This document shows positions 12,844-17,615 of a stretch of 64,000 bases of DNA, in pieces. Every line of letters begins with the position of its first letter. The stretch's first letter is position 1. The DNA lies in NCBI GenBank assembly GCA_026991575.1, contig JALXBF010000036.1, forward strand, positions 1 to 64,000, written 5' to 3'. Position numbers and translations under genes: made by a program. Source of the DNA: Planctomycetota bacterium (GTDB lineage Bacteria > Planctomycetota > Planctomycetia > JALXBF01). A model generated the notes under the pieces. That model did not search any database, had not been told where the DNA came from, and saw nothing but the letters and a program-made list of their open reading frames with translations.

Positions 12844-14310
12844 TCAGTACTGCCGGCGGAGCCGCGAACTGGGAATGCCCAGCGCTTTGCGGTACTTGGT
12901 CACCGTGCGCCGGGCGATGTGGATGCCCTCTTCTTCTAGCTTCGCCTTGATCTGGTCGTCGTTCAGTGGATTCTTCTTGTCCTCGTTCTCGATGATCTCG
13001 AGTAGCTTCCGCTTGATGACCTCAAAGGCCACCTCCTCCCCGCTGTCGGTCACCGTGCCGCTGCCAAAGAACCGCTTCAGCGGCAGGATCCCCTGCGGCG
13101 TCTGAATCCACTTCTCGTCGACTGCTCGGCTGACCGTCGTGACGTGCACGCCGACCTTCTCGGCGATGTCTTGCATCTTCAGCGGGTGCAGATACTCAGG
13201 GCCTTTGTCCAGGAAGTCCTTCTGGTAGTCCACGATTGCCTGAGCCACTTTACGCAGCGTGTTCTTGCGCTGCTGAATGGAGTCGATTAGCCAGCGTGCC
13301 GACTGGATCTTCCGCTGGATGAACTGCTTGGTACGTTCGTCCAGGTTCGGGTCCCGCAACAACCGTTGATACCGCCTGCTGATGGCAAGCTGCGGCGTGT
13401 GGTCATCGTGTAGCCGGACGACGTAGTTACCCTCCTCGTCTTTCTCCACAATCACGTCCGGTACGACGTAGGGCGCCTCTTCCGGCGTGAACTGTGCACC
13501 CGGGTGGGGGGTCAGGTGCTGCAGCGTCTTGAGCGCTTCCTTGATCTCTTCGATCGGAATCCCGCTCTTGCGTTCGATCTGCGGCAGCCGGTTCTGTTCG
13601 AGGTCGTCCAGGTAGTGCTCAAGGAGGATCTTGAGCGTCTTGTAGTGGGGCATTTCGGGCCGCAGTTGCAACAGCAGGCATTCTTGGAGCGATCGGGCGC
13701 CCACGCCCGGTGGATCCAGCCGCTGGACGAGACGCAGCGCCTCTTCGAGCTCCTCGACGGTTGTCTCCTCTGGCGCGTTCGGCACCAGCTCCGCCAGCGG
13801 CACCCGCAAGTAGCCATCGTCGTCGAGGTTGTAGATCAAGTACCGGGCAAGCGACTTGAGCCGTTCGGGGGCATCGAGGAACGCGAGCTGGTGATCGAGG
13901 TACTCCTGGAGGGTTTCCGGCCGGGAGGGCATGTTCTGCATCGCGTCATGCTTACGTTCGCCTGCTTCCTCGATCGCCCCGCGTGAGATGGTCGGCCGGT
14001 AGTCGTCGTCCTCTTCTGGCCAGCCCTCATCGGTTAGTTTGGCCAGCATGTCGAGTTGCTCTTCGGAAAGCTCTTCTTCGCCACCGCCGGAGTCGGCGTC
14101 CTCGGGCAATCCGGTCAGTTCCTCGGCTGTGGCCGGCTCATCGACGCCGAATTCCGGGTCCACGAGGGCCGGGTTCTCGTCCAGCTCCTGAGCGATCCGC
14201 TCCTGCAGGGCCATGATCGGCAGCTGCAGGATTTCCATGGACTGGATCATCTTCGGCGCCAATTTCAGGCGCATCTCTTGTCGCAGGTGAGGTGATTGTT
14301 CTAGACGCAT
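12844..14310 (-). CDS. rpoN: RNA polymerase sigma-54 factor
   Basis: MIQSMEILQLP region I; LDPPGVGARSLQECLLLQL; HVTTVSRAV HTH; RpoN box ARRTVTKYR. Confidence 0.97.
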   Translation of the reverse strand: MRLEQSPHLRQEMRLKLAPKMIQSMEILQLPIMALQERIAQELDENPALVDPEFGVDEPATAEELTGLPEDADSGGGEEELSEEQLDMLAKLTDEGWPEEDDDYRPTISRGAIEEAGERKHDAMQNMPSRPETLQEYLDHQLAFLDAPERLKSLARYLIYNLDDDGYLRVPLAELVPNAPEETTVEELEEALRLVQRLDPPGVGARSLQECLLLQLRPEMPHYKTLKILLEHYLDDLEQNRLPQIERKSGIPIEEIKEALKTLQHLTPHPGAQFTPEEAPYVVPDVIVEKDEEGNYVVRLHDDHTPQLAISRRYQRLLRDPNLDERTKQFIQRKIQSARWLIDSIQQRKNTLRKVAQAIVDYQKDFLDKGPEYLHPLKMQDIAEKVGVHVTTVSRAVDEKWIQTPQGILPLKRFFGSGTVTDSGEEVAFEVIKRKLLEIIENEDKKNPLNDDQIKAKLEEEGIHIARRTVTKYRKALGIPSSRLRRQY

Positions 14311-14498
14311 TGTCATGCCTCGGTCACGTGTTCGTCCCGGCCACGCATGCACCTATGCGCGCTGCGCCCGGTCCTGCGCCTGCCCTCATGGTGTGGCGGT
14401 CTGTTCAATTCTAGCGTGCTTCATTGCGCTGCGCCCGGCGATCGATCCTGGCGTCCGTCGCAGTGTCGTGCCCGCCTTGCCCCCGGGTGCCGCACCTC

Positions 14499-14845: not shown

Positions 14846-16558
14846 ATGGCGCGCAAACGGGGCAACCATTCAACCGCACCGCAACAACCCGCCCACGGCT
14901 ACACCGTTCTGGCCCGCCGCTACCGGCCTCAGCGGTTCGACGAGGTGGTCGGCCAGCAGGCAATCGCTCAGGCCCTCCAAGGCGCCATTCGCGCAGGCCG
15001 CGTTGGGCACGCTTACCTGTTCGCCGGCCCACGCGGTGTCGGCAAAACCACCATGGCCCGTATCTTCGCCCGCGCACTCAACTGCGCCACAGGCCCCACG
15101 ACCGAACCCTGCGGCCGCTGCGATAGCTGCCGGGCAATCGCCACGGGCGAAGACATCGACGTGCTCGAAATCGACGGCGCGTCGAACCGCGGTATCGACG
15201 AAGTGCGCGAGTTGCGTCAGAACGCCTACTACCGGCCAAGCCGCTCCCGGTACAAGATCTACATCATCGACGAAGTCCACATGCTCACACGTGAGGCGTT
15301 CAACGCCCTGCTAAAGATCCTGGAAGAGCCCCCGGCGCACGTAAAGTTCATCTTTGCTACGACTGACCCCCAGAAGATTCCCCCCACGATCCTGTCGCGC
15401 TGCCAGCGGTACGACTTCTCCGGCATCCCGCCCGACCAGATGCGGTCCAAGCTGGCCGAGATCCTCAAGCAGGAGCAGGTTACTGTCACGGACACCGCCC
15501 TGGAGCTGGTCATTCGCCGAGCCGCCGGTTCCATGCGCGACGCGCTCTCGCTCCTGGACCAGCTGCTTTCGTTTGGCGGCAAGAAGATCGATGAGAAGCT
15601 TGTGCACAGCCTACTGGGCACGCTTCCCGAGGATCGGCTAGCGAAACTGGTCGATGACATCGCGCGCCGCGATGGTCGCGCCCTGCTGGAAGCGCTCGAT
15701 GAAATCGAACAACAAGGCGTTCGCCCGGAGGAACTGATCAGCCAGCTTCTGGAGTACTTCCGCGATCTGGCCGCCATCAAAGTAGCCGGACCCGACGCGC
15801 CGCTGGCCTACCTGAGCCCGTCGCTGAGAAGCACTCTGGTGCAGCAGGCGGAACGGTTCGGGCTGGAGAACGTGCTGGCCGCCGGGGACATCCTCATCGA
15901 AGCCCGCGCCCGCCTGCGAACCAGCCAGCTAGGCCGCACCGTCACCGAACTGGCCCTCCTGCGACTGGCCACCCTAGAAGACCTCCGCAAGCTCGCCTCG
16001 CTGGTCACTGCGCTGGAAGCCGGCGAGCTATCCAGCCACACGCCAAGGCCGGCTTCGCCGCCCGAGCCGGCAGCGCCGGCACCGACCGGCACGGCCTCAA
16101 CCAGCCCGGGCGGCATAAAAAAAAACGTTAGCCTGAGTCCGACTGCCGAGTCTCCCGCACCGCCGCCCGACACGCAGTGCGATCCTGGCACCAGCCCAGA
16201 CCCGCCCGGCGACTGGGAGACGCTTGTCGAAGATCTGCGCCAGGAGCTCTCCCCGTTGCTTGCTGTCGCCCTGGAGCAGTCGCGTGCTGAGTGGGGTAAC
16301 GGTCAGCTGCGCGTAACGCTGGGCGCCACAACGCTGACCGAGACACGGCTCCGTGAACTGGAGGAAGCCATCCAGGCCCGACTACCACGCGGCTGGCGTG
16401 TCCGTCTAGAGCTTGCGCCTCGCCGGCAGACAGCAAATGCCCAGGAAAACCTGCGGCAGGAAGCCGCCCGTGACCCGGCCGTGCGCGGCTTGCAGCAGCG
16501 CTTTGGCGCACGCATCATCAACGTGGAACCCAACGCCCATGGGCCGAGCTCAGGGTGA
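14846..16558 (+). CDS. dnaX: DNA polymerase III subunits tau/gamma
   Basis: LARRYRPQRFDEVVGQ; HAYLFAGPRGVGKTT; EIDGASNRGIDEVR; IIDEVHML; TILSRCQ; GSMRDALSLLDQ. Confidence 0.97.
   Translation: MARKRGNHSTAPQQPAHGYTVLARRYRPQRFDEVVGQQAIAQALQGAIRAGRVGHAYLFAGPRGVGKTTMARIFARALNCATGPTTEPCGRCDSCRAIATGEDIDVLEIDGASNRGIDEVRELRQNAYYRPSRSRYKIYIIDEVHMLTREAFNALLKILEEPPAHVKFIFATTDPQKIPPTILSRCQRYDFSGIPPDQMRSKLAEILKQEQVTVTDTALELVIRRAAGSMRDALSLLDQLLSFGGKKIDEKLVHSLLGTLPEDRLAKLVDDIARRDGRALLEALDEIEQQGVRPEELISQLLEYFRDLAAIKVAGPDAPLAYLSPSLRSTLVQQAERFGLENVLAAGDILIEARARLRTSQLGRTVTELALLRLATLEDLRKLASLVTALEAGELSSHTPRPASPPEPAAPAPTGTASTSPGGIKKNVSLSPTAESPAPPPDTQCDPGTSPDPPGDWETLVEDLRQELSPLLAVALEQSRAEWGNGQLRVTLGATTLTETRLRELEEAIQARLPRGWRVRLELAPRRQTANAQENLRQEAARDPAVRGLQQRFGARIINVEPNAHGPSSG
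16117..16136 (+). other. A9 slippage/frameshift site in dnaX with stops in both shifted frames
   Basis: ATAAAAAAAAACGTTAGCCTGA: nine A at 16117-16125; TAG at 16129-16131 (-1 frame) and TGA at 16134-16136 (+1 frame). Confidence 0.8.
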
Positions 16559-16583: not shown

Positions 16584-16904
16584 ATGTTTGAGAAGCTGAA
16601 AGGCATGTTCGCGCAGCTCGGCCAGCTACAGAGTCTGCTTGGGCTTGCCGACCATCTGCGTGCTGAGTTGGCAGCCAAACGGCTGACGGCCGCCTCCGCC
16701 AGCGGAGCGGTCCGCATCGAAATCACGGGCGACGGTAAGGTACTGGGCGTGAGGATCGCTGAGGAGTTGGTGCAGCAGGCCGACCGCGACACGCTGGAGC
16801 GGGAGGTCTGTGAGGCGATCACGTCGCTTCTGTGCCAGCAGAAGGAACTGCTGCAGCAGACGATGATGGGGGCTGTGTCTCGGCTGATGGAAACCAGCCG
16901 CTAG
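16584..16904 (+). CDS. ybaB: YbaB/EbfC family nucleoid-associated protein
   Basis: Lies between dnaX and recR; TAASASGAVRIEITGDGKVLGVRI...DRDTLEREV; ATG at 16584 after GGGGAG. Confidence 0.85.
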   Translation: MFEKLKGMFAQLGQLQSLLGLADHLRAELAAKRLTAASASGAVRIEITGDGKVLGVRIAEELVQQADRDTLEREVCEAITSLLCQQKELLQQTMMGAVSRLMETSR

Positions 16905-16946: not shown

Positions 16947-17615
16947 ATGGCTCAGTACAGCGAAGCGATCCAGAGACTCATCGAGCAACTTACGCGGCTA
17001 CCCGGCATCGGCACGCGTACGGCGGAGCGGTTGGCCCTGCACCTGGTGAATCACCCCGAACAGGCGCGCCAGCTGGCCGACTCCGTGCGTCAGGTTGGCG
17101 AGCAGATTCGGCGTTGCCGCCGGTGCTACAACCTGACAGAAAGTCATGACTTGTGTGGTATCTGTGCCGACGCCGGCCGTGACCAGCGGCTGCTCTGTGT
17201 GGTGGAACAGCCGCGTGATCTGGTCGCCATCGAGTCGGCCGGCGTCTATCGTGGCCTGTACCACGTGCTCGGAGGCAGGATCGCACCGCTGGATGGGGTT
17301 GGACCGGAAGCGTTGACGATCGAGGCGCTGGTGCGGCGCGTACGCACCGAGCGTCCCCGCGAAGTGATCATCGCAACGAGCCCGACGACCGAAGGGGATA
17401 CAACGGCCGCTTACCTGGTGCAGCTGCTGGAACCGTGCGGCGTGCACCTGACTAGGCTGGCCCGAGGGGTGGTGCCGGGTAGCACGCTAGAGATTGCCAC
17501 GCCCGAGATGCTGGCCAGCGCGATCCGGGACCGACGCGCGATTGAATCGGTCAGTGCGGCTGGGGGAAAAAAGAAACGTGATGCGGGCGGCGAAGAAACC
17601 GGTGGTTCGCTCTAG
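16947..17615 (+). CDS. recR: Recombination mediator RecR
   Basis: LPGIGTRTAERLA HhH; CxxC...CxxC; CVVEQPRD; YHVLGG; Toprim region EVIIATSPTTEGDTTA. Confidence 0.96.
   Translation: MAQYSEAIQRLIEQLTRLPGIGTRTAERLALHLVNHPEQARQLADSVRQVGEQIRRCRRCYNLTESHDLCGICADAGRDQRLLCVVEQPRDLVAIESAGVYRGLYHVLGGRIAPLDGVGPEALTIEALVRRVRTERPREVIIATSPTTEGDTTAAYLVQLLEPCGVHLTRLARGVVPGSTLEIATPEMLASAIRDRRAIESVSAAGGKKKRDAGGEETGGSL

Follow-up and report, generated by a model that had tools for sequence, protein, structure and literature searches.

A conserved A9 run in planctomycete dnaX, a probable transcriptional slippage site of the Thermus type

Our analysis of dnaX in a Planctomycetota bacterium revealed a run of nine A's downstream of the region encoding the clamp-loader core, a reading frame that continues through the run into a full-length tau-like protein, and stop codons shortly beyond the run in both shifted frames. 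The gene lies in a stretch of 64,000 nucleotides (contig JALXBF010000036.1, positions 1 to 64,000), which we refer to as the window. Based on these features and on their recurrence among relatives, we regard the run as a genuine recoding site that is conserved and very probably functional, and we propose that it is probably a programmed transcriptional slippage site of the kind found in Thermus thermophilus dnaX. The mechanism itself is known, and the site adds no new one.

We propose the following model for the expression of the gene. While RNA polymerase copies the nine template T's, the rA:dT hybrid can realign, and the resulting mRNA pool would contain A9 along with A10, A11, A8 and other lengths. 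Transcripts of the templated length, or differing from it by three, would yield full-length tau of 570 aa. On transcripts of other lengths ribosomes would enter a shifted frame that ends 2 to 4 codons on, and the predicted gamma-like products of 428 or 429 aa would keep clamp-loader domains I to III and lose the C-terminal tail. What is observed is the run at this place in the gene, the stops beyond it, and the conservation of both; from this we infer that the polymerase slips here, with some frequency, and that the short protein accumulates.

The A9 run and its place in dnaX

The features of the locus are as follows.

14846-16558, + strand: dnaX, full-length tau-like frame of 570 aa (open reading frame; Pfam and NCBIfam matches)
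15590-16006, + strand: clamp-loader domain III, aa 249-387, the last domain common to tau and gamma (Pfam PF12169 DNA_pol3_gamma3, E 1.9e-15)
16117-16125, + strand: A9 run, candidate slippage site, codons 424-427 ATA AAA AAA AAC (sequence and relatives)
16129-16131, + strand: TAG ending the +1A product (or the product of a -1 ribosomal shift), ...KKKR, 428 aa
16134-16136, + strand: TGA ending the -1A (or +2A) product, ...KKTLA, 429 aa
16130-16555, + strand: tau-only C-terminal tail, 142 aa, absent from the short product (weak NCBIfam tau C-terminus matches)
16584-16904, + strand: ybaB/ebfC, the downstream gene of the usual dnaX-ybaB-recR cluster (Pfam YbaB_DNA_bd, E 1.4e-13)
16947-17615, + strand: recR (Pfam Toprim_4, RecR_HhH, RecR_ZnF)

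The gene is identified as dnaX by the NCBIfam models TIGR02397 (455.4 bits, cut-off 250) and NF004046 (464.5 bits, cut-off 400), and its product carries the AAA+ clamp-loader domains I to III together with a match to the DnaX-specific N-terminal model. The Pfam domains found are DNA_pol3_delta2 (PF13177, aa 37-192), the lid (PF22608, 199-245) and DNA_pol3_gamma3 (PF12169, 249-387). The last 142 residues weakly match the extreme C-termini of several NCBIfam tau models, best of all NF011520 (E 8.2e-8, profile positions 491-609 of 624), and short products would therefore lose the tau-specific tail. In other bacteria, the C-terminal tail of tau links the clamp loader to the polymerase and the helicase.

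Positions 16112-16135 read GGC ATA AAA AAA AAC GTT AGC CTG in frame with the dnaX open reading frame, GGC being codon 423, and the run lies 37 codons past domain III within a Pro/Ala-rich linker. By computation, one added A leads to I-K-K-K-R and TAG, and one A removed to I-K-K-T-L-A and TGA. A preliminary description of this DNA, made from its letters alone, had given the same sequence, position and frame for the run, the same two shifted stops and the lengths of 428, 429 and 570 aa; all were recomputed as stated. It had also placed the run in the Pro/Ala linker past the clamp-loader core, in agreement with a domain III that ends at aa 387 and a run at codons 424-427, and had singled the run out as the longest noticed in the window and its ATA and AAA codons as uncommon in neighbouring genes.

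Both of these last observations hold on a larger scale. The dnaX A9 is the sole run of at least eight A's in the window, where A8 has two overlapping matches against 0.16 expected, a number reached by 1 of 100 shuffles. The whole genome (4,962,839 bases, 64.2% GC) contains one A9, two T9 and no longer run of A or T; one T9 is an opposite-strand A9 inside a Lys-rich open frame, and the other lacks a convincing frame. The codons that make up the run are rare in long open reading frames genome-wide, AAA accounting for 22% of Lys codons and ATA for 3.9% of Ile codons.

Conservation of the run and of the stops beyond it

The preliminary description had proposed an alignment of planctomycete dnaX genes as a check on the run and its flanking stops, and in Planctomycetia both prove to be kept. 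Our class sample comprised 121 genomes from 15 families and 76 genera, in which 120 dnaX loci were read and one fragment was left out. Some of these loci are identical or nearly so to named public records, which put Planctomicrobium and a Gemmata relative inside the class and a Brocadiia record outside it, and the class is accordingly Planctomycetia. A run of at least nine A's is present at query residues 391-468 in 95 of the 120 genes, as A9 in 64, A10 in 29 and A11, the longest in the set, in 2. It occurs in 13 of the 15 families and in 88 distinct flanking contexts; families f9 (0/5) and f91 (0/3) are without it, and f5 (18/28), f4 (13/17) and f7 (21/24) have it in part. The remaining 25 genes consist of three with A7-A8 and 22 with no run, and a search of their linkers for decayed runs found no A-rich 10-mer save the A8 of two of the A7-A8 genes. 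The run is therefore dispensable or replaceable.

What is it that is conserved at this site? The first A of the run occupies the third codon position in 52 of the 95 genes, the second in 38 and the first in 5, and the peptides encoded by the run vary among relatives (IKKN, AKKN, QKKT, EKKK, KKKV). One genus of family f5 retains ..AKKKL.. at the site with the A run broken to five or fewer, and AAA supplies just 42% of Lys codons elsewhere in Planctomycetia dnaX genes. Because of the three codon phases, the differing peptides, the genus with a broken run and the modest use of AAA, the conserved entity is, by this comparison, the nucleotide run and not a Lys peptide.

The stops beyond the run are conserved as well. 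Within 12 codons, the +1A frame meets a stop in 85 of the 95 run-bearing genes against a background of 0.30, and the -1A (or +2A) frame does so in 85 of 95 against 0.33, the background being taken from ordinary positions of the same dnaX genes. Both frames stop within this distance in 78 of 95 genes, against a background of 0.108, and the median distance is six codons in each frame; in a simulation based on the backgrounds of the individual genes, stops in both frames occurred on average in 10 and at most in 22 genes of 94. Enrichment of stops in both frames is what the Thermus model predicts; -1 frameshifting by ribosomes would, by itself, have no need of it.

These data bear on the possibility that the run has no role in recoding, being a linker motif rich in Lys or a homopolymer that arose by chance, with slippage as tolerated noise. 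Such an origin would suit a linker that is otherwise poorly conserved and a class in which 25 of 120 members do without the run. It is hard to square with the three codon phases and differing peptides, with the rare codons of the sole A9 of the genome, and with stops in both frames at more than the background rate; in addition, long A/T runs are described as disfavoured in the coding regions of many bacteria (PMC1088944). The comparative data already disfavour a run without a role, and we consider it very unlikely.

Relatives share descent, so the 95 genes overstate the number of independent observations. In a FastTree phylogeny built on the N-terminal 385 residues (246 rows), Planctomycetia form one clade, within which presence and absence of the run require at least 13 changes, compared with 21.9 on average and no fewer than 18 when the labels were shuffled. 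The trait thus passes down by descent but has been lost or gained repeatedly, and the comparison shows the putative Thermus solution to be a widely inherited trait of Planctomycetia. The probable programmed tau/gamma recoding put forward in the preliminary description is thus supported by the frequency of the run in the class, by its three codon phases and by stops in both frames above background.

The run is also found beyond the phylum. A cross-phylum sample consisted of 80 named dnaX loci among the matches listed, which are biased towards similarity to the query, and 23 of these 80 carry a linker run of at least nine A's. Among the matches listed, these 23 comprise 11 from Planctomycetia/Planctomycetota, six from Phycisphaerae and six from other phyla, namely Ignavibacteriota (twice), Bacteroidetes, Fibrobacteria, Burkholderiales and Methylophilaceae. 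Named carriers in this sample include a Gemmata strain, with A9, and Aporhodopirellula aestuarii, with A10. With carriers in several phyla, the Thermus solution would be widespread.

Transcription or translation as the source of the short product

The slippage at Thermus thermophilus dnaX was reportedly described by Larsen et al. in 2000. As in that gene, the planctomycete site has nine A's on the sense strand, tau encoded in one open reading frame and stops near the run in both shifted frames, and the predicted short product ends just past the clamp-loader core. The sequence-level features of the Thermus type are all found here: a sense-strand run of at least nine A's, its place past domain III, stops in both frames, and selection on the run among relatives. 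Unlike the Thermus gene, the one described here belongs to Planctomycetota, a different phylum. For Thermus, the A9 run is described as giving about 50% short product, a ratio of about 1:1, with stops in both shifted frames (PMC1088944, PMC5009743). The preliminary description had named this system as precedent, alongside the -1 frameshifting of Escherichia coli dnaX on A AAA AAG, and agrees with these two papers as far as they bear on it.

It is conceivable that the short product arises instead mainly by -1 ribosomal frameshifting on an in-phase A_AAA_AAA, in the style of E. coli dnaX. There, too, an A-rich heptamer lies in phase and gamma ends soon after domain III, as predicted here. Any A9 holds A_AAA_AAA in the right phase whatever the codon phase of the run, so codon phase does not discriminate between the two routes. 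At the planctomycete site, the -1 frame would end after two further codons at the TAG of 16129-16131 and give the same KKKR product, and heptamer-type sites do exist in the phylum (G_GGA_AAA in family f50, 5 of 6 genomes). The E. coli signal, however, consists of A_AAA_AAG with an upstream SD-like element and a downstream stem-loop, in a genome whose one Lys tRNA (UUU) decodes AAA as well as AAG. In the window the run is followed by C, so that AAG is absent and the available heptamer is A_AAA_AAA and not A_AAA_AAG; the genome encodes both tRNA-Lys(ttt) and tRNA-Lys(ctt) (UUU and CUU; ARAGORN); and stops follow in both shifted frames.

Stimulatory elements were sought around the run in the window and in the 95 relatives. 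Predicted RNA structure at the window site gave z = -0.25 downstream (16126-16190), +0.22 upstream and -1.29 across the site. For the relatives, the mean z was +0.20 downstream, with 2% of genes below -2, and -0.29 upstream, both to be set against -0.13 for control segments (mononucleotide shuffles); neither a terminator-like hairpin upstream nor a frameshift-stimulating hairpin downstream is enriched in the window and these 95 genes. The SD-like motifs GGAG, GAGG and AGGA are absent from the 22 nt upstream of the run in the window, and an SD-like 4-mer precedes the run in 17 of 95 relatives against 0.12 at control positions, which is no enrichment.

The length of the runs provides a further distinction. 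The sharp floor at nine A's found in Planctomycetia, with A7-A8 in 3 of 120 genes, is compatible with a need for the run to fill the RNA:DNA hybrid; a -1 ribosomal shift leaves the near-absence of runs shorter than nine unexplained, as it does the early stops of the other frame in 85 genes. Given the lack of AAG, the presence of both Lys tRNAs, the lack of enriched structure or SD-like elements and the sharp floor at nine A's, we favour slippage by RNA polymerase, to which ribosomes may add a minor contribution, and we regard frameshifting as an unlikely main source of the short product. The preliminary description had leaned the same way, towards the transcriptional type, on the grounds of stops in both frames and the lack of AAG; the hairpin and SD-like searches and the two Lys tRNAs are consistent with its preference.

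Three routes to gamma are described (bioRxiv 10.1101/2022.11.10.516041). In Caulobacter crescentus, gamma is produced from tau by ClpXP proteolysis, so that two forms likewise come from one gene; unlike the route proposed for the window, this one is post-translational and needs no nucleic-acid signal. We speculate that the 25 of the 120 class members that have no run could use a route of the ClpXP type.

The preliminary description had known of no such report for planctomycetes, and our full-text literature searches gave none for the phylum. Specifically, they returned no report of slippage, frameshifting or transcriptional realignment at dnaX in Planctomycetota, one supplement of PMC3711429 standing outside the search. 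In the accessible text of that paper planctomycetes appear only in a table of genome counts, and two of its text supplements contain no match for dnaX or for planctomycete genus names.

Alternative dnaX layouts in Planctomycetota

Outside Planctomycetia, an evenly drawn sample of other classes yielded 131 dnaX loci, 125 complete and 6 incomplete. A linker run of at least nine A's is present in 11 of the 125 complete loci; in two others a run of this length lies far downstream, and 95 are without any run of at least seven A's. Compared with 95 of 120 inside the class, these 11 of 125 argue that the trait is characteristic of Planctomycetia and sporadic elsewhere in the phylum.

In 3 of the 11 other-class linker runs (genomes G044, G153 and G041) the layout is reversed. 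The order of G041, which belongs to another class, was followed up in 30 dnaX loci, and one family of that order, f94, has an in-frame A9 or A10 in 6 of 6. The reversed layout is found throughout much of another family of the order, f11: in 5 of 6 genomes, representing 5 genera, an A10 is followed 4-11 codons on by a stop in the 0 frame, and the +1A frame encodes the tau tail of 191-239 codons. These five out-of-frame tails share homology with the tail that the sixth f11 genome encodes in frame (E 2e-26 to 2.5e-5). The layout is kept over genera and is therefore not an assembly error, and with a stop in the 0 frame and the tail in the +1A frame the long product needs a frame change at the run. 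We consider the f11 layout, as read from these genomes, the best available indirect evidence for efficient runs in the phylum. Within Planctomycetia, one genome (L060) carries an A11 in the reversed layout, two congeners having an in-frame A10 and A11; its tail shares homology with those of both congeners (E 4e-55 and 7e-39).

A related arrangement is known from 'reversed' dnaX genes composed of two open reading frames, for which Antonov et al. 2013 (PMC3711429) describe a poly-A run in 12 of 17, its length being 10 A's in nine. The kind of run and its place match those found here, and the layout itself is seen in f11 (5/6), G153, G044, G041 and L060. The window has the opposite polarity: its tau is encoded in the 0 frame, and slipped transcripts would give gamma.

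Could the run instead act at the level of DNA, as a hypermutable tract in which replication slippage or phase variation toggles cells between making tau and making gamma only? Homopolymers are described as mutation hot spots (PMC1088944), run length does differ between species (A9, A10, A11), and the A11 of L060 leaves its tail out of frame. The out-of-frame layout of f11, on the other hand, is fixed over 5 genera rather than polymorphic. A DNA contig of depth 34 over the site in the window is identical to it, without gaps or indels and with a single run length, its reads being probably the source of the assembly and thus not independent. Moreover, tau is the form that joins the clamp loader to the polymerase, and it is described as essential in the bacteria studied (bioRxiv 10.1101/2022.11.10.516041), so that a heritable state without it would be lethal. 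A DNA-level switch of this kind is, in our judgement, highly improbable, more so than any other explanation considered here.

Two further layouts do not involve a poly-A run. In 5 of the 6 genomes of family f50, G_GGA_AAA lies two codons ahead of a TGA in the 0 frame, again in the reversed layout. In family f21, dnaX is split in 29 of 29 loci at a conserved C_CCU / stop / GGCCGG junction, of which the accessible text of the dnaX recoding papers cited here contains no description. Four dnaX layouts thus occur in Planctomycetota, namely an in-frame A9-A11 run in most Planctomycetia, a reversed A10 in f11, a reversed G_GGA_AAA in f50 and the split gene of f21.

What is the relevance of these runs and their variants? 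Annotation pipelines give one protein of 570 aa for the gene in the window and miss a further product that this essential replication gene probably has. Lineages in which the run is present, lost or reversed bear on the old question of why bacteria keep gamma. We tentatively suggest, at a little short of even chances, that the poly-A run acts in planctomycete dnaX as a switch open to evolution, not as a fixed signal, and that lineages have moved between layouts. Slippage would be so efficient that a change of one base in run length swaps which of the two products, tau or gamma, needs the slip. If this is true, the tau:gamma ratio would be under strong selection, different recoding routes would have met that need time and again, and Planctomycetota would offer a natural setting in which to study how one route turns into another.

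Reversed dnaX layouts at A runs

In several relatives the dnaX layout is reversed with respect to that of the window, such that the templated (0) frame gives the short, gamma-like product and the tau tail lies in a shifted frame. At an A10 run, this layout is found in five loci of family f11, which lies outside the window's class (L357, L345, L356, L360 and L361), as well as in L342 and L146, with a gamma-length protein encoded in the 0 frame and the tau tail in the frame entered by one extra A (+1A). It is kept across five genera of f11, and the tails are homologous to that of genome G281, which is in frame.

The same polarity occurs with only seven A's in L349 and L355 (f93) and L338 (f78), again elsewhere in the phylum, where the 0 frame stops after 4–8 codons and a tail of 119–181 codons follows in the +1A frame. 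Because A7 is short for polymerase slippage, these sequences may instead support a ribosomal shift.

Within the window's own class, the dnaX of L060 (genome G227, family f5) carries an A11 run with TAG immediately after it in the 0 frame, and a tail of 175 codons in the +1A frame. Congeners of G227 have dnaX in frame, with A11 in G251 and A10 in G255. L060 may thus have truly reversed its layout, or else the G227 assembly miscounts the A's of this homopolymer.

Other homopolymers in linkers and in the source genome

The dnaX linkers of the window's class hold further homopolymers. In genus g17 (family f6), L021 and L023 carry two A9 runs with three bases between them (A9-TTG-A9), and L080, L081 and L085, of the same genus, have a single A10 with AAATTG just before it. 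A C9 run (PPPP) is located at about residue 424 in L090 (G222, f9), a family in which dnaX lacks an A run.

The sole other coding-sense A9 of the source genome lies outside the window on contig C158 (C158:32637-32645), read as T9 on the plus strand; it falls at residue 277 of a minus-strand open frame of 318 codons, in a Lys/Glu-rich stretch (...KSKKKKKKEEQEEKEE...). The window also holds the following feature, whose C-terminus we take, by eye, to resemble a sigma-54 (RpoN) protein.

12844-14352, minus strand: ORF of 502 aa, upstream of dnaX and on the opposite strand

Heptamer and stop-codon junctions

In L339-L341, L343 and L344 (f50) and L350 (f93), the 0 frame of dnaX terminates as ...GGG AAA AGC C TGA, with an in-phase G_GGA_AAA heptamer, a stop two codons later and the tail in the -1 frame. 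Judged by its sequence, the arrangement in five of the six f50 genomes is a reversed layout of the ribosomal type; the sixth, G283, has a full-length dnaX with an A7 run.

Family f21 (L362-L390; 29 loci, 17 genera) belongs to a class of Planctomycetota other than the window's. In all 29 loci the 0 frame stops at about residues 397–429, and the tail, in the -1 frame, extends 176–716 nt beyond that end. The conserved junction consists, in order, of C_CCU (or CCCC), 0 or 1 codon, a stop (TAG, TGA or TAA) and GGCCGG, with a constant 6 nt between CCCT and GGCCGG, as in these examples:

CGC CCT CGC TAG GGC CGG
CAC CCT TAG GTC GGC CGG

No earlier description of this junction was found in the literature consulted on dnaX recoding. 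How might the frame be changed at a junction that, in all 29 loci, is free of an A run? Our guess is that a slow stop would let the P-site tRNA-Pro slip by -1, leaving CCU to pair with CCC.
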